A DNA stretch of 55,432 nt from assembly GCA_964434735.1 (NCBI GenBank), contig CAYSWK010000005.1, positions 1 to 55,432 on the forward strand, read 5' to 3'. Source of the DNA: Candidatus Micrarchaeota archaeon (GTDB taxonomy: Archaea; Micrarchaeota; Micrarchaeia; Anstonellales; Bilamarchaeaceae). Under the pieces are notes generated by a model. The model worked only from the letters and a program-made list of their open reading frames with translations, ran no database searches and was not told the DNA's origin. How positions within the stretch are numbered: position 1 is the stretch's first letter; the number at the start of each line of letters is the position of its first letter. Made by a program: the position numbers and the translations under genes. Positions 37,294-53,186 of this stretch are shown piece by piece.

Positions 37294-40200
37294 ATGAGAG
37301 GGAACTTATTCGTAACGACAGTATTATTATTGCTTCTTTTGTCAGGCATTTCATTTGCCCGTCCGTTTCCTATTGTAACAAACGATACTGTCGCACCTTT
37401 TGCCGACCAACCGGAGTTTTCAAGCATGAGCGATGCACAAATTCAGTTTTTTGCACAAAATTTTTATGGTACACAAAAATTATACGCAAACCAGATTTCC
37501 CAGCTTCGTGCGTATAATCCGAATTTTCTTATGCTTCATTATCGTTTGGGCCAGTCTGCAGGTTCTGCACCAGGCATTGCGCATGATGCGGATTCCGACG
37601 GTTCAGTAAACGGCAACGTATATTCTAGTGAAGAATGGACAAGCTATACACAAAACCAAGACTGGTACATTCTTGGCAGTGACGGACAACGACTTTACCA
37701 AACTCAATGGAATTGGTATCCGTTTGATCTTGGAAGAAGTCAAGTCGTTCGAAACCAGGTTGCTGATTACTGGGTAAGGCGTGCAACTGAAGAAGCGCGC
37801 GCAACAGGCAGTGACGGTATTTTTGCAGATTCTTCAGGCCAATTGTTTGGCCCGTGGCAGAATACAAACGCGCTTCCAAATTACGTTCCGGGTTCTCCAA
37901 CATTTACGGTTGCAAACGGCCAGAATTGGCTTTCAAATGCGTATGTTCCTTATTCTCTTCGCGTGTGGCAGGGCATGCAGGCACAAAATCTTTCCTATCT
38001 TCCAAACGTAGGCCAATTAATTACTAGTTGGGATTCGATTAACAATTATCTTAATTCTGACGGTGCGATGGTTGAAGGTTTTGCAGGATTTGGTTCAAGC
38101 ATTGCCGACGTAAACGATTGGCGCCTTGAAATGAATAATGTACTTACGTTGTCCCGGAACAACAAAATCGTAATCGCACAGACGTCTCTTGATGCTCAAA
38201 ATGACCTTACTCGAAGAAGTTTTATTGCAGGGAGTTATCTTCTTTCAAAAGGCCCAAAGAGCTACCTTTTCATGTATTCGGGCTCAACATTGGAGTGGTA
38301 TCCTGAATATGACCTTGATTTGGGCGCATATGTAGATATGCCTGCAAACGTAGATTCATTAGTATGGAACGGAGTTTATCGAAGAAATTTTGAAAAAGGA
38401 ATGGTGCTTGTTAATCCAAGCGGTTCAAATATGGTCGTAAATTTAGGTACCACCTATAATCTTGCCCAATTTCAAGGCGGAGGAGCCATTCCCGTAGACG
38501 GTTCACGTGCAGGTTCGATTACCTATCAATCGGTAAATCAAGTAACTATTCCTGCTCAAGGCGCAGTGTTTCTTTTGAATATTCAAGGTGCACCAATTGA
38601 CGCGGACCAGGACGGTTATACTTTTGCAGTTGATTGTAATGATAATAATGCACAAGTAAATCCGGGTCGAAACGAGGTTCCAGGGAATGGGGTTGACGAT
38701 GATTGCAACGTAAACACTCCCGATTCAATCCTTTCTCCTACAAACCAGACCGGCTTAATTGCAACAATTGGTTCGGATTCATCCATATATTATAATGAAC
38801 GTGATGCCGCAGTTACAGGTGCAACCCATTTCATCATTAATCCTGTTGTCGGGAATGGCTTGGGAACCCAACTTGCTGACAACCAAGGATTGTACATATA
38901 CACTCCTCGCGTAATGGGTCGTTTTTATTATCGTGTTGTCGCATCAAATGGGCAGGCAGTTGCAAATGTTGCAGCGTTCCATCGGTCAGGACAAACGTTC
39001 CTTACCTGGACGGAAAATGGCGCAGCATCATATGCTATTTATCGTGAATCTAATCAGCAGGCAGGAAGTGTCGCAGTTGATGAAACAAATGATCCAATAC
39101 AGCCTGTTCTTGTTTGGCAAGACAATGGTGCGCGAGTTTATACTCTTTTCTTACCTCAGGACTCTTGGAACCGTGAACTTTTCCGAGGCCAAGGGCTTAA
39201 TTTCTTCGTTGGCGTTCCTCAAGGGTATAATTATGCTTCCCCTTCAAGACTTCCAGTTGTAATTCACCAGGAAGGTCGCAGTTCACGATATACGAACAAC
39301 AATGCGCGTGTTGGAACAGGTGGCAGTCCTTATGATATTACTGCAGTGTATGTGCGTCTTGATGATCCTGACCTTCCAACCTATTCGCAAGGATGGTATT
39401 TTGGGCATTATTGCAATCCTCAAAATCCTCAAGAAGGCGTTTGCAATTATTTAGAAAATGCGTACATTGAATTTATTCTTGCATTGCAACGAAATGCCCA
39501 GTATAACATCGACCAGGATCGTATCTATGACTATGGTCACTCAATGGGTGGAACGGCAGCACTTCGATTTGGTATGCGTTACCCGGATATTTTTGCAGGA
39601 ATTTATGCCTCTGAACCTGTAACAAACTTTGATACGGTCGCAGATCTTGGCGGTACAAACTGGGAAGCAGATGTTGCAGATTCAAGAGGAACTTCTGCAC
39701 AAAACCTTCCGTTTCATCCGGTAGGCGTTTCAAGAAATTACTTGTTGAATTTAGACGGTCAAGGCGTTTGGACTGTTGAAAACATGATCGATTCTGTTTG
39801 CCGTAATCAAGGAAAAAATACAGCACTTATCACTCTTGCCCATGGAACTGCAGATGACAGTGTTGATACCGATACGCAAGGGTATTCCTTTTATCAAGCA
39901 GCTAATCGTTGTCATTTAGGTTTTCAGGCCCAAATTACAAGTGGAGGTCATAGTTGGCAAGGCTTTGCCGGCATGGGCCAGATGCTTGACATTTTTGGGA
40001 ATCATCAATTCAGAAAAGCAAGTTTCCCTGCATTTTCAAATGCTCAAAATTCGAAAGATCCTTCAACAACCGGAACAGGCTCATTTAACCAAGACCTTGT
40101 TTGGGCTTTACGACAAGACACTGCGACCGTGTGGGAATCGGAAATTCGTTCAACTACTACGGATCAGCAGGTAGACGTTACTCCAAGAAGATCACGCCTT

Positions 40201-42984
40201 GTGGTTTTACCCAATCAACAATTTTTCTGGGAACGAAGGAATACTCAAGGCACCGTACTTGCATCCGGTTCAGTGCAGGCAGACCCCTATGGAGTAGTTA
40301 CTGTCCCCCGATTCCTTGCAACTACCTCAGGGAGTGTTCTTGTGCTTACTGCTGGCCAGGTGGCGCCAGATATAACTCCGCCTGTCATTTCAGTTCCAAC
40401 GACGACTCCAGGAACAACAACTGCGCAAGTAGTATTCACTACTAATGAACTTTCAACGGTGCGTTTGGACTATGGGACCACACGTTCCTATGGACAGGTT
40501 ATGAATCTTCCTTCAAATACGCAGTTTAGTGTTAATCTTGTTTCACTTGCCCCTTCAACAACCTATTATTATCAGGTTACGGCAACGGATTCTGCAGGTA
40601 ATTCGCAAACGTTGAATGGCCAATTTACTACGTCTGCATTAGTTGTTGATGCGGATGGGGATGGATATAACTCAAATGCGGATTGCAACGATGCAAACGC
40701 GCAGGTAAATCCGGGCCATGCTGAAGTTCTTGGAAATGGCATTGATGATGATTGTAACTCAAGCACTCCTGATCAAGTTGTAAACGGATCTTTGCAAACC
40801 GTAACACTCGTATCTAGTGCAGATTCATACCTGTATCCATCATATTCAAATACGGGCAGACAAACAAACCTTAAGATGTATCAGGAAGGAAACACAGCAA
40901 GCCAAACACGCCTTCTTGTACGATTTAATATTTCCTTGATTCCAGCAGATGCAGTTATTACCAACGCGCAACTTAAATTGTATCATGTGGGGTCTTCCTT
41001 TGACACGGCAGCAAGAAACGTTGCCGTTTGTGCACTTTCCCAAAATTGGGTTGAAGGAACGGGTACGCATGAATTTGACGCAGGAGCAACGGGCGTTACG
41101 TGGACCTCAACGGGAACGGGTGTAAACTGGAATATAGCAGGCGGATCTTGCGGTGCAGATTTTGCAAGCGCCCCCGTACCTTACCGGGCAACGAGCATCT
41201 ACGATCCAGTACGCTTTGTCGTATTTGATGTGACCTCACAGGCGCGTAGTTCAAACGGATACCTGGTTCATTCAATAAGCGGCAACTGGAGGCAGGATGA
41301 TTTTGCTCCTCGTGAAGCTGCGGATCCAAATGTTCGACCTCAATTAGTTGTTACTTACTCCCTCCCCGTTCTTGACGTAGACGGGGATGGTTATGATGCG
41401 AACACAGATTGTAATGACCATAATACCCAAATCAACCCCAGCATGGCAGAAGTTTTGTACGACGGCATTGACAACGACTGTAACCCCAATACCTTGGATT
41501 ACGTAGACGTTGACCAAGACAGCTTTCGTTCCAATGTTGATTGTGACGACACTAATCCTCGCGTTAATCCTGGGGCTTTGGAAATTCTTTATGATCAAAT
41601 AGATAATGATTGCAATGTAAACACGCCAGACACCGTTGATGCGGATCAAGACACTTTCAACAGCAATGTTGACTGCAATGATACTAATACCCAAATCAAC
41701 CCCGGCATGGCAGAAGTTTTGTATGATGGAGTTGACAACGATTGCAATGTGCAGACTTTGGATTTCCAAGGATACTCTCATTTCTTCACAATTGAGGAAA
41801 TTCAAAATTATACATCTACAAATCTTGGGGATTCCCATATGTTTGACGTTAAAAATGAGTTTTCCTATTTTTCATTCCTCCCTCCCCAGGAAGGAGACTA
41901 TGAGTTTATTGTAACTCTTAAGAAAGAAGGAAATCCCTATTGGTTCCAGGTGAATGTTCGAAATGTGCTTGAGGGTCGCGTCACACACGATTTGGGAAAC
42001 ATATCTGATAATTCCTATTTCCAATACTCTACGCAGTTTCATATCCATCCCGTTTTGACGCAGGTTCGTTTGTATGGGGGAGCACGGGGAGGCTCAAAGC
42101 AGTATCTTCAATCTGTTGAGATTAGGCAAATCCCCCCTCGCATTGACGTAGATCAGGACGGATTTGTACGTGCTGTTGATTGTGATGATACTAATGCCCA
42201 AATCAACCCCGGCATGGCAGAAGTTTTGTACGATGGTGTTGATAACGATTGTAATGCCAACACCCCAGATATGGTTGATGCCGATGCAGATGGGTTTAAT
42301 TCAAACGTTGATTGTAATGATGCTGACGCACGCGTCAATCCGGGAGCCCAGGAAGTTCTTGGAAACGGAATTGATGATGATTGTACGTCTTTGACACCCG
42401 ATGTTTTGCAGACCTATAATCTGACACTGTATGCTGTTGAGGACGCATACGTATTCCCTTCGTACGGTAATACGGGAAAACAGGATATTCTCAAGATGTA
42501 TCGCGAGGCCGATGTAGCATCCTCAACTCATCTTATTGTCAAGTTTGATACGTCAAGTATCCCACAAGGTGCACGTGTTGTACGTGCGCGTCTTGAATTG
42601 TATCCTCTTGTTTCTCAATTTGATTCTGCCGTACGGGAGGCAAGTGTTTGTGCACTTTCCCAAAATTGGGTTGAAGGAACGGGTACGCATGAATTTGACG
42701 CAGGAGCAACGGGCGTTACGTGGACCTCAACGGGAACGGGTACAAATTGGAATACAGCAGGTGGATCTTGCGGACCGGTTATTTCGAGTGCTTTGGTTTC
42801 GTATGTTGCACAAGCCTCTTTTGACGAATCACGGTTTGTCGGTTTTGATGTTACGTCTCAGGCACGTTCATCCTATGGATTTATGATTTTACCCACAAGT
42901 GGCAATTGGAGACAGGATAATTTTGCCCCGCGGGAAACGCCGGATGCGCGTATGAGACCAAGACTCATTATCGAATACCAATAA
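37294..42984 (+). CDS. Giant secreted multidomain protein: putative glycoside hydrolase, alpha/beta hydrolase, FN3-like domain, 7 MopE-type metal-binding repeats and 2 DNRLRE-like domains
   Basis: Signal peptide; GIFADS and AMVEGF in a TIM-barrel-like region; GHSMGG, GTADDS, GGHSW; DxDxDG..DCND..NPG..E..DDDCN repeated 7 times; two domains ending RPQLVV and RPRLII. Confidence 0.85.
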   Translation: MRGNLFVTTVLLLLLLSGISFARPFPIVTNDTVAPFADQPEFSSMSDAQIQFFAQNFYGTQKLYANQISQLRAYNPNFLMLHYRLGQSAGSAPGIAHDADSDGSVNGNVYSSEEWTSYTQNQDWYILGSDGQRLYQTQWNWYPFDLGRSQVVRNQVADYWVRRATEEARATGSDGIFADSSGQLFGPWQNTNALPNYVPGSPTFTVANGQNWLSNAYVPYSLRVWQGMQAQNLSYLPNVGQLITSWDSINNYLNSDGAMVEGFAGFGSSIADVNDWRLEMNNVLTLSRNNKIVIAQTSLDAQNDLTRRSFIAGSYLLSKGPKSYLFMYSGSTLEWYPEYDLDLGAYVDMPANVDSLVWNGVYRRNFEKGMVLVNPSGSNMVVNLGTTYNLAQFQGGGAIPVDGSRAGSITYQSVNQVTIPAQGAVFLLNIQGAPIDADQDGYTFAVDCNDNNAQVNPGRNEVPGNGVDDDCNVNTPDSILSPTNQTGLIATIGSDSSIYYNERDAAVTGATHFIINPVVGNGLGTQLADNQGLYIYTPRVMGRFYYRVVASNGQAVANVAAFHRSGQTFLTWTENGAASYAIYRESNQQAGSVAVDETNDPIQPVLVWQDNGARVYTLFLPQDSWNRELFRGQGLNFFVGVPQGYNYASPSRLPVVIHQEGRSSRYTNNNARVGTGGSPYDITAVYVRLDDPDLPTYSQGWYFGHYCNPQNPQEGVCNYLENAYIEFILALQRNAQYNIDQDRIYDYGHSMGGTAALRFGMRYPDIFAGIYASEPVTNFDTVADLGGTNWEADVADSRGTSAQNLPFHPVGVSRNYLLNLDGQGVWTVENMIDSVCRNQGKNTALITLAHGTADDSVDTDTQGYSFYQAANRCHLGFQAQITSGGHSWQGFAGMGQMLDIFGNHQFRKASFPAFSNAQNSKDPSTTGTGSFNQDLVWALRQDTATVWESEIRSTTTDQQVDVTPRRSRLVVLPNQQFFWERRNTQGTVLASGSVQADPYGVVTVPRFLATTSGSVLVLTAGQVAPDITPPVISVPTTTPGTTTAQVVFTTNELSTVRLDYGTTRSYGQVMNLPSNTQFSVNLVSLAPSTTYYYQVTATDSAGNSQTLNGQFTTSALVVDADGDGYNSNADCNDANAQVNPGHAEVLGNGIDDDCNSSTPDQVVNGSLQTVTLVSSADSYLYPSYSNTGRQTNLKMYQEGNTASQTRLLVRFNISLIPADAVITNAQLKLYHVGSSFDTAARNVAVCALSQNWVEGTGTHEFDAGATGVTWTSTGTGVNWNIAGGSCGADFASAPVPYRATSIYDPVRFVVFDVTSQARSSNGYLVHSISGNWRQDDFAPREAADPNVRPQLVVTYSLPVLDVDGDGYDANTDCNDHNTQINPSMAEVLYDGIDNDCNPNTLDYVDVDQDSFRSNVDCDDTNPRVNPGALEILYDQIDNDCNVNTPDTVDADQDTFNSNVDCNDTNTQINPGMAEVLYDGVDNDCNVQTLDFQGYSHFFTIEEIQNYTSTNLGDSHMFDVKNEFSYFSFLPPQEGDYEFIVTLKKEGNPYWFQVNVRNVLEGRVTHDLGNISDNSYFQYSTQFHIHPVLTQVRLYGGARGGSKQYLQSVEIRQIPPRIDVDQDGFVRAVDCDDTNAQINPGMAEVLYDGVDNDCNANTPDMVDADADGFNSNVDCNDADARVNPGAQEVLGNGIDDDCTSLTPDVLQTYNLTLYAVEDAYVFPSYGNTGKQDILKMYREADVASSTHLIVKFDTSSIPQGARVVRARLELYPLVSQFDSAVREASVCALSQNWVEGTGTHEFDAGATGVTWTSTGTGTNWNTAGGSCGPVISSALVSYVAQASFDESRFVGFDVTSQARSSYGFMILPTSGNWRQDNFAPRETPDARMRPRLIIEYQ
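41026..41121 (+). repeat. 96-bp exact direct repeat, copy 1 (copy 2 at 42646-42741)
   Basis: Identical nucleotide run 1620 bp apart inside the two DNRLRE-like domains. Confidence 0.95.
42646..42741 (+). repeat. 96-bp exact direct repeat, copy 2
   Basis: Identical to 41026-41121. Confidence 0.95.
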
Positions 42985-49205: not shown

Positions 49206-49355
49206 AGTAACACCTAGCTGTTTGAAAATGCATCAATTATTCTATTTCGTAGGCTTTAAAAGCTTGCTACTTTGCAAAATGTGTTTTTACCAGTTGCCAA
49301 GCTTTTTATAATTGAGCGCCGAATACGCATCAAATCGTATTTAGGGTGGGGAAAT

Positions 49356-51731
49356 ATGAAAAACGTACTATGGTTTAGTGAGCTTACTAAAAAAAGCATC
49401 GGCGAGGCAGGGGGAAAAGGCGCAAATCTTGGTGAAATGACTCAAGCGGGATTTCCGGTTCCTCCTGGTTTTGTAGTTACAAGTGGCGCGTATTTCAAGC
49501 ATCTTACTGCAAACGGCCTTACAAACGTAATCGAGCAAGAACTCAAGGGTCTTGATGTGAATAATAACGATGCACTTAATGCCGCAAGCGAAAAGATAAA
49601 AAAACACATTCTCGATTCACGAATGCCGGACGATATTCGTCACGACATTATTGTTTCATACAAGCAATTGTGCGACCGCATTGGCCGTGAATTGTTTGTT
49701 GCCGTCCGTTCGAGTGCAACTGCCGAAGACCTGCCAACTGCAAGTTTTGCAGGTCAGCAATCGACATACCTTAACGTAAAGGGGCAAGATCATGTCGTCC
49801 ACATGGTTAAGGAATGCTGGGCATCGTTGTTTGAGCCTCGTGCAATTTACTATCGAGTGCAAAATCATTTTGAGCATATGAAAGTCGGTCTTGCGGCTGT
49901 CGTGCAGATGATGGTGCAATCCGAGCGTTCGGGTGTCATGTTTACGGTTGATCCTATTACTCAAAATCGTTCGCTTATTTCCATTGAAGCTGGATACGGG
50001 CTTGGTGAAACGGTTGTATCGGGCCAGATTACTCCCGATTCGTATCGTGTTGAAGCAAGCAATATGGCCATTGTCAAAAAGGACATCTGCCGTCAAACCT
50101 GGATGCTCGTAAAAATCGGCGAAAAGAACCAGCGTGCAGATATCAAGGATGAAATGCAAGACAAACAGAAACTTACTGATGCGGAAATTGTTGAGCTTGC
50201 AAAAGTTGGTTTAAACATCGAAAAGCACTATGGTTATCCTCAAGATATCGAGTATGCATTTGAACGGGGTAATTTGTACATTGTTCAATCAAGGCCCATA
50301 ACAACCTTGACTGATAAGAAGGGACTTGAAGGCGCAAGCCACACGGAGCCTGCAGTTGGACATACGGGTGAGATTATGGAAGAAAAATCAAAAATCGATA
50401 TTTCAAAAGCAAAAGTACTGGTAAAGGGTTTTGGTTCCTCACCTGGCGTTGGCACGGGCAAGGTAACGATCATCATGAGCCCAAAGGAAATTTCACGGAT
50501 GAATAAGGGAGACATTCTTGTTACGGACATGACGACTCCTGATTTTGTTCCCGCAATGAAAAAATCTGCAGCTATCGTAACCAATACGGGCGGAATGACT
50601 TCGCATGCAGCAATCGTTTCGCGTGAGCTTGGCATCCCTTGCATTGTCGGAACCCAGAACGCAACTACGGTTCTTAAGGAAGGAATGGATGTTACGGTCG
50701 ATGGAAGCCACGGCGTCGTATATGAAGGTATTGTCGCATTAGCAAAGGAAGATGATTCCTCAACAAAACCGGTTATGATGGCAGGTGAATCAGCACCTAT
50801 CACCGGGACAAAGATTTACGTGAATTTGGCAGAAGTTGAATTGGCTGAAAAAGTCTCAAAGCTTCCGGTTGACGGTGTCGGTCTTTTGCGTGCAGAATTT
50901 ATGATTGGCGATATTGGAGAACATCCAAGGCACATGCTTGAAACCGGTCGTTCCCAGGAGTTTGTTGATAAGTTGGCAGAAGGTTTGCGAAGGTTTGCGG
51001 CAGCATTCCACCCAAGACCCGTTGTTTATCGTGCAACGGATTTCAAGACAAATGAGTATAGGAATTTGACGGGCGGTGAAAAATACGAGCCACAGGAAGC
51101 AAACCCCATGATGGGTTACCGCGGCGCTGCAAGGTACATTCAGGAGCCCGAGTTGTTCAAGCTTGAGTTGCTTGCAATCAAGAAGGTGCGTGATGAATAC
51201 CATCTTCGAAACCTGTGGGTCATGATTCCGTTTGTTCGAAGGATCGGCGAGCTTCGCGCTATTAAGGAAATGATGCGCGCTGAAGGTTTGTTCCAGACGC
51301 GGGATTTCAAGCTCTGGATCATGGTTGAAGTCCCATCAACCGTTATTTTGATCGACCAGTTCTGTCAGGAAGGGATCGATGGCATTTCAATCGGCACCAA
51401 TGATCTTACTCAATTGACTTTGGGTATTGACCGTGACAATGCAACCTTAGCGGCAGGATTTGATGAGCGAAACGAGGCCGTTTTGCGTTCGCTTGAACGA
51501 GTCATTCGTGTATGCGGCAAATATGGCGTAACTACTTCTCTTTGCGGCCAGGCACCTTCCGTGTATCCTGAGTTTGCTGAGAAGCTGGTTGAATTTGGCG
51601 TTACTTCCATGTCGGTTAACCCCGATGCTGTTGAGCGCACGAGAAAGATTGTTGCAAGTGCAGAAAAGAGGATTATGCTTCGCAGGCTTGCCCAGCTTAC
51701 GGCGCCTAAAGGCGATGACCTTCTTTACTAA
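49356..51731 (+). CDS. ppsA: Phosphoenolpyruvate synthase
   Basis: GGKGANLGE, AVRSSATAED, SFAGQQ, GGMTSHAAIVSRELG, SIGTNDLTQ; start set at MKNVLW. Confidence 0.97.
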   Translation: MKNVLWFSELTKKSIGEAGGKGANLGEMTQAGFPVPPGFVVTSGAYFKHLTANGLTNVIEQELKGLDVNNNDALNAASEKIKKHILDSRMPDDIRHDIIVSYKQLCDRIGRELFVAVRSSATAEDLPTASFAGQQSTYLNVKGQDHVVHMVKECWASLFEPRAIYYRVQNHFEHMKVGLAAVVQMMVQSERSGVMFTVDPITQNRSLISIEAGYGLGETVVSGQITPDSYRVEASNMAIVKKDICRQTWMLVKIGEKNQRADIKDEMQDKQKLTDAEIVELAKVGLNIEKHYGYPQDIEYAFERGNLYIVQSRPITTLTDKKGLEGASHTEPAVGHTGEIMEEKSKIDISKAKVLVKGFGSSPGVGTGKVTIIMSPKEISRMNKGDILVTDMTTPDFVPAMKKSAAIVTNTGGMTSHAAIVSRELGIPCIVGTQNATTVLKEGMDVTVDGSHGVVYEGIVALAKEDDSSTKPVMMAGESAPITGTKIYVNLAEVELAEKVSKLPVDGVGLLRAEFMIGDIGEHPRHMLETGRSQEFVDKLAEGLRRFAAAFHPRPVVYRATDFKTNEYRNLTGGEKYEPQEANPMMGYRGAARYIQEPELFKLELLAIKKVRDEYHLRNLWVMIPFVRRIGELRAIKEMMRAEGLFQTRDFKLWIMVEVPSTVILIDQFCQEGIDGISIGTNDLTQLTLGIDRDNATLAAGFDERNEAVLRSLERVIRVCGKYGVTTSLCGQAPSVYPEFAEKLVEFGVTSMSVNPDAVERTRKIVASAEKRIMLRRLAQLTAPKGDDLLY

Positions 51732-51804
51732 TTTTTTCTTTTCTTTTAGCGTTTGAATAGATATATAAATTTCTCCATTTATTATCACTTTATTACGGAT
51801 TATT

Positions 51805-51888
51805 ATGAGAATACTTTTGCAGTTCCCCGATCTGCTTGAAACAAGTTTCAAGTTTCCAGAAATTGGATTACAAAAAGGTGAGATCTAA
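51805..51888 (+). other. 27-aa upstream ORF echoing the Dph2 N-terminus with recoded codons
   Basis: MRILLQFPDLLETSFKFPEIGLQKGEI-stop; TAATG overlap with dph2; internal inverted repeat at 51835-51852. Confidence 0.75.
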
Positions 51889-52799
51889 TGCGTATTTTAC
51901 TCCAATTTCCGGAAGGGCTCAAAAAAGAGGCTCTTAAATACCAGGAAAAATACGAAAAGGAAGGCCACGAGGTGTTCGTGGCGTGCGCCCCTTGCTATGG
52001 CGGATGCGATCTTCCAATTGATGAAGCGCGTTGGATCAAGGCAGATAAAATCGTTCATTTTGGCCATGAAAAGTTTGTGAAAAAAGATTTGGATGTTGAA
52101 ATTGAATATATCCCCTATTATCTTGACGTCAATCTTGATTCGGTTATGAAAACGTTTGAGCAATTGAAGCAATACAAAACCATTGCGCTTGGAACGACTA
52201 TCCAACACATTCACCAATACGAAAAAATGTGTGAACTTCTAAAGAGCAAGGGCCATGAAGTTGTTGCAGACAAGGGATACTGGGCAATCAAAACCGGACA
52301 AATTCTTGGCTGTGATTCCCTTTCATTGAAGCGCGTTGCATTCAAGGCCGATGCATGCGTTATTGTTGCAGATGGGATGTTCCATCCTTTGGCAATAGAT
52401 ATCGAAGATAAGCCCGTATTTGTTATTCATCCGCAAACGGGTGCAATGAACCAGATCAATGATGAAATTATTCGCTTACGAAAAAAGAGGCGTGCAAATA
52501 TCATTGCTGCAGTTGATGCAAAGACCTTTGGAATTCTTGTTTCAACAAAAGTTGGGCAGTTTTTGCTTGGACCTGCCGACCGCATCAAGAAGGAGCTTGA
52601 GGCAAGAGGCAGGAAAGCAATTATTTTAGTTGCAAACGAGCTTGAGCCGTTGCCTTTGCAGAACTTTATGTTGTTTGACTGCTATGTAAACACGGCCTGC
52701 CCAAGACTCGCAGACGATACTGATGAATTAGGCAAACCGTGTCTTAATTATGATCAGCTGAAGGAAGCATTCAAGATAATGGATGAGTTGAAAAAATAA
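51888..52799 (+). CDS. dph2: Diphthamide biosynthesis enzyme Dph2
   Basis: LLQFPEGL, CYGGCD, HFGH, QILGC, NTACPR. Confidence 0.96.
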   Translation: MRILLQFPEGLKKEALKYQEKYEKEGHEVFVACAPCYGGCDLPIDEARWIKADKIVHFGHEKFVKKDLDVEIEYIPYYLDVNLDSVMKTFEQLKQYKTIALGTTIQHIHQYEKMCELLKSKGHEVVADKGYWAIKTGQILGCDSLSLKRVAFKADACVIVADGMFHPLAIDIEDKPVFVIHPQTGAMNQINDEIIRLRKKRRANIIAAVDAKTFGILVSTKVGQFLLGPADRIKKELEARGRKAIILVANELEPLPLQNFMLFDCYVNTACPRLADDTDELGKPCLNYDQLKEAFKIMDELKK

Positions 52800-52844: not shown

Positions 52845-53186
52845 TTATTTGAATTCTTGGATTTTTATTTGAGGTTTTGATTCGAGTATTTCTATTTCTC
52901 TTTTAATTGTTGGAGGTATGATAAATTCTCCATTTTTTACAAGGGAATTAAATCCGTTTTTTCTAGCATGGTCATATAATTTTTTAAGCAAGTTTTCCAT
53001 TTTTTCACTTGCACCTCCAAATTCTTCAACATATGCCGGGGCTTTTGATTGTTTAAATCTCTTTTGCATGTTTCTTAGGTTTCCAACCCTATCTGCCGTT
53101 TCATCAAAGTCAAACCGTTTTGTAAGCCACATCGAATCTTGTTTTCCAAATTCTATTTCTTTGGTCGCATATGCCATACTTACCAT
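52845..53186 (-). CDS. Hypothetical protein
   Basis: 113-aa ORF between convergent dph2 and divergent purC. Confidence 0.6.
   Translation of the reverse strand: MVSMAYATKEIEFGKQDSMWLTKRFDFDETADRVGNLRNMQKRFKQSKAPAYVEEFGGASEKMENLLKKLYDHARKNGFNSLVKNGEFIIPPTIKREIEILESKPQIKIQEFK

Follow-up and report, generated by a model that had tools for sequence, protein, structure and literature searches.

A modular upstream reading frame copying the Dph2 N-terminus, a candidate translational leader of dph2 in one clade of Micrarchaeia

The dph2 leader and its parts

The stretch of DNA analyzed here, referred to throughout as the window, comprises positions 1 to 55,432 (55,432 nucleotides, nt) of contig CAYSWK010000005.1, in the assembly GCA_964434735.1 of a Candidatus Micrarchaeota archaeon. 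The subject of the analysis is the short leader of dph2, the gene encoding 2-(3-amino-3-carboxypropyl)histidine synthase, where an upstream open reading frame (uORF) begins with a second, synonymous copy of the Dph2 N-terminus and continues through a hairpin and a short sequence complementary to the start of the gene itself. The product of the window gene matches Pfam Diphthamide_syn (PF01866, 9.6e-65) and the Dph2 structure PDB 3lzc (1.4e-44). Among its homologues (n = 2340), the nearest named ones come from Candidatus Micrarchaeota, and the nearest genome is a metagenome-assembled genome (MAG) of the Bilamarchaeaceae, in the class Micrarchaeia (DPANN). The features of the locus are as follows.

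51762..51769, forward strand: TATA-like box TATATAAA, a sequence reading, within the promoter block TATAAATTTCnCCATTTATTAT
51805..51888, forward strand: uORF of 27 codons, peptide MRILLQFPDLLETSFKFPEIGLQKGEI followed by the stop; the last base of its TAA is the first base of the dph2 ATG
51805..51832, forward strand: head, eight codons encoding the Dph2 N-terminus, followed by an invariant GAT-C; 10 nt and no amino-acid changes relative to the dph2 head
51835..51852, forward strand: hairpin H, the inverted repeat CTTGAAAC-AA-GTTTCAAG, starting at nt 31 of the unit
51854..51867, forward strand: anti-motif B, TTCCAGAAATTGGA, the complement of dph2 nt 14-27 (14 nt, one mismatch)
51877..51881, forward strand: Shine-Dalgarno (SD)-like GGTGA, 6 nt 5' of the dph2 ATG, a sequence reading
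51886..51890, forward strand: stop/start overlap TAATG, a sequence reading
51888..52799, forward strand: dph2, 303 amino acids, starting MRILLQFPEGLKK
51901..51914, forward strand: A', dph2 codons 5-9, TCCAATTTCCGGAA, the partner of B

We infer from the sequence that transcription starts downstream of the TATA-like box at 51762..51769. A first, sequence-only reading of the stretch had reported that MRILLQFP is encoded twice, and recomputation bears this out: over the first nine codons the uORF and dph2 are identical at 16 of 27 nt, and codons 2-8 all differ synonymously, with 10 nt changed and no amino acid altered. The inverted repeat, the GGTGA, the TAATG, the TATA-like TATATAAA, and the TGA in the dph2 frame at 51879, all listed in that reading, were likewise recovered. 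When 10 random substitutions were placed in codons 2-8 of the window head, the peptide was retained in none of 100,000 trials (P<1e-5), and the origin of the peptide copy by chance is excluded.

A scan of the 55-kb window for genes preceded by a copy of their own N-terminus recovered dph2 only, besides one internal domain repeat. The latter is the peptide MAEVLYDG, found at 41443 and 41707, 264 nt (88 amino acids) apart, inside the plus-strand open reading frame (ORF) 37294..42984 (1896 amino acids), and reflects a domain repeated in tandem within a giant protein, rather than mimicry by a uORF.

The possibility of a chimeric assembly, raised in the sequence-only reading, was settled by the Logan contigs of three runs from two independent studies (two sludge runs and one wastewater run), which span positions 51600-52100 with zero differences. 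An independent Logan contig, L002, is identical to the window across the leader, and a groundwater run contains a variant approximately 96% identical, which extends into the head. Misassembly of the junction between the promoter, the uORF, and dph2 is thus excluded.

Recurrence of the unit and constraint on its peptide and RNA

Loci of dph2 were gathered from genome contigs, metagenome contigs, and look-ups of the closest homologues, scanned for Dph2-like peptide starts, and then read. Units of 83-110 nt, in one or two tandem copies, lie upstream of dph2 in seven lineages of Micrarchaeia, in which the Dph2 protein is 49-76% identical to that of the window. Homologous uORFs were found in L004, L005, L006, L020, L212, and L214, that is, in six lineages other than the window, and their divergence is biased toward synonymous changes, rather than toward the random decay that the sequence-only reading had considered. 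The carriers are as follows.

Window (= L002): one unit
L005 (= L087), Dph2 76% identical to the window: one unit
L004, Dph2 70% identical: two tandem units
L212, Dph2 66% identical: a truncated mini-unit and a full unit, with a 21-nt spacer duplicated exactly
L214 (= L215), Dph2 61% identical: one unit
L006, Dph2 55% identical: one long unit with four extra hairpins
L020, Dph2 49% identical: two tandem units

The anatomy of the unit is shared among these lineages. The head follows the consensus ATG, A(G/A)A ATH YTN NTN CAR/CGA TTY CCN, and the invariant GAT-C, which encodes M(R/K)I(L/I)(L/I/M)(Q/R)FPD; the ninth codon is always GAT, followed by C. Two variable nucleotides after the GATC, at nt 31 in all nine full units, hairpin H begins (consensus YTTGRNC...GNYCAAR), with a loop that ranges from 2 nt to about 30 nt. 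The anti-motif B lies 1-2 nt after H and reads TCTC(A/C)(G/A)GAAATTG, also given as TCTCNNGAAATTG; it is the reverse complement of codons 5-9 (C CAA TTT CCN GA) of the next start, which may be either the head of the following unit or dph2. B is followed by a purine-rich spacer of 21-27 nt, whose terminal GAGGT, AGGTG, or GGTGA lies 5-9 nt 5' of the next ATG, and an SD-like GTGAT, GGTGG, or AGGATGAT is found 5' of most of the 5'-most heads.

The sequence-only reading took the FPEIGLQK of the uORF as a peptide echo of the FPEGLKK of Dph2. It is instead a by-product of B, which is the reverse complement of dph2 codons 5-9, and whose core TTCCGGAA is its own reverse complement. In other lineages B is read as VSGNC, NLRKL, KSQEF, or ISRNC, in different frames, in comparison with F-P-E-I-G in the window, which indicates that B is conserved as RNA or DNA, and not as peptide.

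A TGA in the -1 frame occupies the first bases of H (from YTTGA) in five of the nine units, at 51837-51839 in the window, and at the same nt 33 in L005, in unit 2 of L004, in unit 2 of L020, and in L006; in L212 the TGA is found at nt 24. It follows that a ribosome slipping by -1 in the head would terminate before the masking helix opens. A programmed -1 frameshift was itself considered and rejected, given that no X_XXY_YYZ heptamer was found by inspection in any head, and that the frame relation between the unit and the next ATG is not conserved: the distance from each unit ATG to the next ATG, modulo 3, is 2, 2, 1, 1, 2, 2, 0, 2, 2, and 0.

The heads bear the mark of coding sequence. When seven units were compared with the dph2 heads of their own genomes, the differences at codon positions 1, 2, and 3 numbered 8, 1, and 26, with 25 synonymous and four non-synonymous codons, and the head of L020 unit 1 departs from its dph2 head in a manner that simulation assigns P = 2e-5. 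The same holds between tandem units: the two heads of L020 differ by 8 nt and one conservative change (P = 1e-5), and those of L004 by 5 nt and one change (P = 0.017). Since tandem heads within one genome behave alike, the pattern is not mere inheritance from two real dph2 alleles. In eight of the nine full uORFs, the frame also runs without a stop across H, B, and the spacer until 12 nt or less from the next ATG, an event with a chance of 0.22-0.52 in each case, and a product of approximately 2e-4 if the cases are independent. At six of the ten junctions the uORF stop overlaps the next ATG, as TAATG in the window and as ATGA at the five others. Given that the head codons diverge almost exclusively at synonymous sites, the uORF is very probably translated, and its N-terminal peptide constrained, as judged from sequence comparison. 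The window and L020 have 5'-most heads whose synonymous codons (CAG TTC CCC) weaken the pairing with B and leave the peptide unchanged, and RNA mimicry is therefore not the reason for the peptide in these heads.

The sequence-only reading overlooked the central feature of the RNA, which is that B pairs with the start region of dph2, and in so doing encloses its SD and AUG. In the predicted structure, H together with the B:A' helix has 87% of its cells paired, and a covariation score of 0.296, in comparison with 0.091 in column shuffles (0/500 as high), and no more than 0.106 in slid controls. In H, five of the eight pairs have changed on both sides, and 90% of the cells are paired. In B:A', three pairs have changes on both sides, at synonymous positions of dph2, as follows.

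dph2 Pro8 wobble, CCT: B has TCAGG
dph2 Pro8 wobble, CCG: B has TCCAG
dph2 Phe7 wobble (L214), TTC: B has GGAATTG
dph2 Leu5 wobble, codon varies: B varies in step

Unguided RNAalifold recovered H plus B:A', and in the minimum free energy (MFE) folds of the five leaders known at that point, a B pairs with the A' of dph2 in all five. In the MFE fold of the window, the SD is also paired, with dph2 nt 7-15. The duplex energies indicate that B prefers the downstream start over its own head in five of seven units (-17.2 vs -6.5 kcal/mol in the window). On these models, the B:A' helix encloses the dph2 SD and AUG.

The association with dph2 is specific. In an ungapped complement test of 68 dph2 loci, an 11-14 nt complement of dph2 nt 10-33 was found upstream only in the unit-bearing loci then known, all of which were top-ranked; this test replaced a comparison of the duplex energies of upstream regions with the dph2 start, which was dropped as too permissive and confounded by GC content. 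The covariance model R1 has a single match in the 55-kb window and, in 355 kb from 93 sources, matches only upstream of dph2, by which a dispersed palindromic repeat or miniature inverted-repeat transposable element (MITE) was rejected. Viral contigs scanned for the pattern GATC-N-TCTCMRGAAWTTG gave chance matches only, none of them with a head.

The distribution of the unit is patchy within a restricted group. It is absent from 11 close relatives, including L001 (95% identical) and L086 (81% identical), and, among the 80 metagenome loci at greater distance, from 78. All the carriers fall in one clade of a neighbour-joining tree built from 74 Dph2 sequences, each with a unit-less sister. In L001 the promoter block TATAAATTTCnCCATTTATTAT sits directly before the dph2 ATG, with no unit. 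This block is common to window positions 51762-51790 and L001 positions 1217-1245, and the upstream gene differs, being ppsA in the window and an unannotated ORF of 185 amino acids in L001; the neighbourhood has therefore been rearranged and the promoter kept.

Several loci contain variants of the unit. In L006 (95-200), four additional perfect hairpins lie between a degenerate anti-motif TCTCCAATTG and an intact one GGTCTGGAAATTG, and two of these extra hairpins (GAACGACG.ATCGTTC) resemble the hairpin H of L020 unit 2. In L212 (52-196), the mini-unit, with the peptide MRILLGKHEATT and a stop, has head codons 1-5 joined to the spacer at a CTG/TTG microhomology, and the 21-nt spacer has an exact duplicate, GGGAAAACATGAGGCAACTAC; both stops still overlap the next ATG. 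This arrangement, as read from the sequence, is evidence of recent duplication and deletion. In L016 (1470-1500), a headless AAATTGCCTGCG, overlapped by a TATA box, has the exact sequence of the B-tail of unit 1 in L020, and precedes AAGGTGA and the dph2 ATG. This site, which R1 matches at 37.7 bits, may be the tail relic of a unit.

The gene callers left the uORFs uncalled in those loci whose gene calls were inspected, and the tandem "false starts" upstream of dph2 in Micrarchaeia represent a warning for gene callers and annotators. In the window, dph2 is preceded by ppsA and followed by purC and an aldehyde dehydrogenase gene. An ORF of 113 amino acids without a Pfam match (52845..53186, reverse strand) lies between dph2 and purC, and these two genes are directly adjacent in L088, L089, L210, L213, and L214. 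The mechanical ppsA ORF (49272..51731, forward strand) begins at a TTG. The true start is probably the downstream ATG at 49353 (MKNVLWFSEL...), because translation from that point already covers the PPDK_N, PEP-utilizers, and PEP-utilizers_C domains, all of them complete.

Proposed leader gating of dph2 and the rival explanations

The explanation preferred here, for which the chances appear to be about even, is that the unit is a functional translated leader that gates the translation of dph2, and that it is modular, dph2-specific, and confined to one clade of Micrarchaeia. In the resting mRNA, B would pair with A' and enclose the dph2 SD and AUG, with the SD of the window itself also paired, so that free ribosomes would initiate poorly on dph2. 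Ribosomes would load instead at the unmasked 5'-most head and translate the uORF, which would melt H and the B:A' helix, and would then terminate at or beside the dph2 AUG and re-initiate there. Termination-reinitiation at stop/start overlaps has been shown experimentally in archaea, in overlapping gene pairs (PMC6728339, PMC10666635). The outcome would be a synthesis of Dph2 that is strictly dependent on the translation of the leader, and attenuated by it, while tandem units would act as chained repeats of the coupling step. Given that the head peptide is itself under purifying selection, the sequences further suggest, more speculatively, that this peptide and the hairpin at its fixed distance modulate the progress of the ribosome and act as a sensor.

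Of the two alternatives offered in the sequence-only reading, the coupling of dph2 translation by a leader peptide has thus gained comparative support, from the SD-led ATGs, the codon-periodic conservation, and the overlap of stops with the next ATG at the six junctions; the other, the neutral relic of a diverged dph2 allele, has not stood, for the reasons given below.

A number of observations weigh against gating by a translated leader. The unit is dispensable, given that each carrier lineage has a close sister without it, L001 among them. The sample of nine full units from seven lineages is small, and its members are not independent. At four of the ten junctions there is no overlap: three stops fall short of the next ATG by 9-24 nt, and one lies 26 nt inside dph2. 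The excess of overlaps over one third is only suggestive (P about 0.08). The alternative helix between the head and B, which a true switch would form, has no covariation support over the nine units: the pairing is possible in 82% of the cells, at the variable columns in only 2/9 and 4/9, with a weak duplex in the window (-6.5 kcal/mol). The MFE of the window leader is unexceptional (z = -0.89), and perfect inverted repeats can be maintained at the DNA level by template-switch correction, with no need of selection on the RNA. Two metatranscriptome runs contain the 3' end of ppsA only. Finally, coupling alone fails to account for a head that encodes the N-terminus of Dph2.

This last point would be addressed by a sensor of the nascent peptide, of the type known from the erm and cat leaders, which would refine the gating leader by making the peptide its sensor, and which appears unlikely. 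Here, M(R/K)ILLQFPD would slow or arrest the ribosome near codon 9, before H, in response to a small molecule (S-adenosylmethionine, SAM, the co-substrate of Dph2, for example) or to the state of elongation factor 2 (EF2), and the position of the ribosome would decide whether B masks the dph2 start. In favour of such a sensor, known bacterial arrest leaders stall at codons 5-10, and purifying selection on the peptide is limited to the first 9-11 codons, the rest of the uORF being read in varying frames; Asp9 is invariant, H always starts at nt 31, and the 5'-most heads of the window and L020 keep the peptide while their synonymous codons weaken the pairing with B. Against this, the peptide is the enzyme's own N-terminus, which has to be translated without arrest, and apart from the downstream hairpin the leader differs consistently from Dph2 only in D9 for E9. 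Such a sensor requires the head:B helix, which is the one without covariation support, and we know of no arrest peptide of this kind in archaea.

It is distinctly unlikely that the unit is a selfish or neutral module of tandem duplication with no role in regulation, derived from an ancestral fold-back and duplication of the dph2 5' end, and retained by virtue of having its own start. Such a module would grow and shrink by recombination between heads, which would look like coding sequence through exchange with, or descent from, real dph2 heads, possibly those of other lineages. The patchy distribution, with unit-less sisters and copy numbers of 0, 1, or 2, is in line with this explanation, as are the exact 21-nt duplication and the microhomology deletion derivative of L212, the tail relic of L016, the Lys2 codon that the L020 units share with their own dph2, and the gain or loss of the window unit since the split from the 95%-identical L001. 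However, with almost no change of amino acid, 5-8 of 21 nt separate the heads within a genome, and 10 of 21 separate the window head from dph2; heads so strongly diverged in nucleotides therefore point to no recent exchange, yet the peptide has been kept. Nor would a module of this type be expected to have a B that tracks three synonymous sites of the local dph2, an H kept by compensatory changes despite a loop of 2 to about 30 nt, and a uORF kept open, or to be without copies elsewhere in the 355 kb scanned.

A further possibility, very improbable on present evidence, is that the head peptide becomes the N-terminus of Dph2 itself, with the unit skipped either by translational bypassing or by archaeal bulge-helix-bulge (BHB) splicing. 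Head codon 8 or 9 joined to dph2 codon 9 gives the exact Dph2, which would explain the requirement for MRILLQFP and the constraint on the head at the level of the peptide, and the hairpin lies directly after the would-be take-off site; Micrarchaeota are also reported to have a splicing endonuclease of broad specificity. Across the units, however, no in-frame junction has a consistent BHB (4/4 central helix plus flanking helix). In the case of bypassing, the Pro8 codon differs between the head and dph2 in six of the nine heads, there is no stop after the take-off codon, and the gaps measure 83-201 nt. In all lineages dph2 retains its own SD, its ATG, and its full N-terminus, and inspection found no X_XXY_YYZ slippery site.

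Hardly any weight can be given to an isolated event of gene replacement or element integration that left a relic of a diverged dph2 allele. The uORF and dph2 heads of the window are unlike at every synonymous site, as those of diverged alleles would be, and the window and L001 have different genes upstream of dph2, but a unit with the hairpin, the anti-motif, the SD, and the GATC is found in six other lineages, the promoter block is common to the window and L001, and the two repeats, only 83 nt apart, have no integrase, att-like structure, or element between them. A neutral scar would also be at odds with the compensatory changes in H, the covariation of B with the local synonymous sites of dph2, the open frame, and the mostly synonymous divergence of the tandem heads. 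Equally implausible is a DNA-level element, in which the palindromes would act on transcription as a cruciform or as operators of a dimeric transcription factor: inverted-repeat half-sites (YTTGRNC...GNYCAAR and CAATTTCC...GGAAATTG) do lie near the promoter, but a spacing of the H half-sites that varies, with the loop, from 2 to about 30 nt is incompatible with an operator of fixed geometry, which is thereby rejected, the elements of tandem arrays lie 30-200 nt downstream of the TATA box, and the codon-periodic conservation and open frame point to translation.

The gating leader is of interest at a number of levels. To our knowledge, nothing is known of the regulation of diphthamide synthesis in archaea, and the control of translation in cis by leader peptides, a textbook subject in bacteria, has few documented cases in archaea. 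The literature and Rfam yielded no leader-peptide control for either DPANN archaea or diphthamide synthesis. The diphthamide of EF2 safeguards the maintenance of the reading frame (PMC6143161). It is conceivable, although decidedly improbable, that the unit is a feedback sensor which reads the diphthamide state of EF2 through translocation along the structure, or SAM through arrest of the nascent chain, and sets the synthesis of Dph2; if true, neither a leader-peptide attenuator in DPANN archaea nor a regulatory circuit for the synthesis of diphthamide would have been described before it. Comparative evidence indicates that, in an element of approximately 85 nt, the invariant start of the gene that it would regulate is copied twice, as peptide and, inverted, as RNA. 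A unit of this size is directly suited to reporter, toeprint, and structure-probing assays, and provides a clean natural case of synonymous recoding in a duplicated coding start.

Comparison with known leaders and coupled genes

Scanning with Rfam 15 gave no match at the gathering threshold in the whole window, and a permissive scan of 51700-51960 returned only sub-threshold noise from miRNA hairpins (26.8 bits, in comparison with a threshold of 79). Full-text searches of the literature recovered no account of either a dph2 leader or Micrarchaeota uORFs, and none of a leader peptide with the same N-terminus as the product of its own gene.

The translational-attenuation leaders of the bacterial resistance genes ermC, ermB, cat, and cmlA share with the dph2 unit a short SD-led ORF (8-30 codons), of which approximately the first nine residues are conserved, and an RNA helix that sequesters the downstream initiation region. 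Access to this region is set in these leaders by the position of the leader ribosome, as it would be in the dph2 unit. In contrast with these leaders, the dph2 unit is archaeal (DPANN), modular, and tandem; its masking helix falls on codons 5-9 of the gene rather than on the SD, its peptide copies the N-terminus of the regulated protein, and its second, anti-sequestering helix is without covariation support.

Similarities are also found in the termination-reinitiation of archaea and bacteria at ATGA, TGATG, and TAATG (PMC6728339, PMC10666635), which has the same overlap of 1 or 4 nt, present at six of the ten junctions here, and an SD just upstream. The coupled pairs described in those studies are two real genes, often encoding subunits of one complex, whereas the partner of dph2 is a leader of 12-58 codons with no conserved C-terminus. 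The dph2 unit would add to this arrangement the structural masking of the downstream start.

The unmasking of a structured initiation region by ribosomes is known from the MS2 coat gene, which acts on replicase or lysis, and from many ribosomal-protein operons. There, as proposed for the dph2 unit, a downstream start concealed in a long-range helix is exposed when ribosomes translating an upstream ORF melt that helix. Coupling between uORFs and riboswitches has been described in mycobacteria (PMC11260477; bioRxiv 10.1101/834739), where short ORFs near the 5' end attenuate, as the dph2 unit is proposed to do. Unlike the MS2-type and mycobacterial cases, the dph2 helix is an inverted copy of the invariant codons of the gene, and the upstream ORF begins with a direct copy of them.

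In the yeast GCN4 mRNA, reinitiating ribosomes pass through several short uORFs in turn, and their competence to reinitiate determines the output. The tandem dph2 units resemble this series, but GCN4 relies on eukaryotic scanning, has uORFs with no relation to the main ORF, and lacks a masking helix. Gene 60 of T4 and the mitochondrial byps of Magnusiomyces are hairpin-forming inserts of tens of nucleotides in or near the 5' coding region. Like the dph2 unit, they have codons repeated on both sides, and vary in number between relatives; in the dph2 unit, by contrast, no stop follows the take-off codon, the take-off and landing codons often differ, and the downstream copy keeps its SD and ATG.

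The unit is therefore assigned to no named family, and by analogy its closest counterpart in working would be a bacterial leader of translational attenuation or coupling, combined with archaeal termination-reinitiation.

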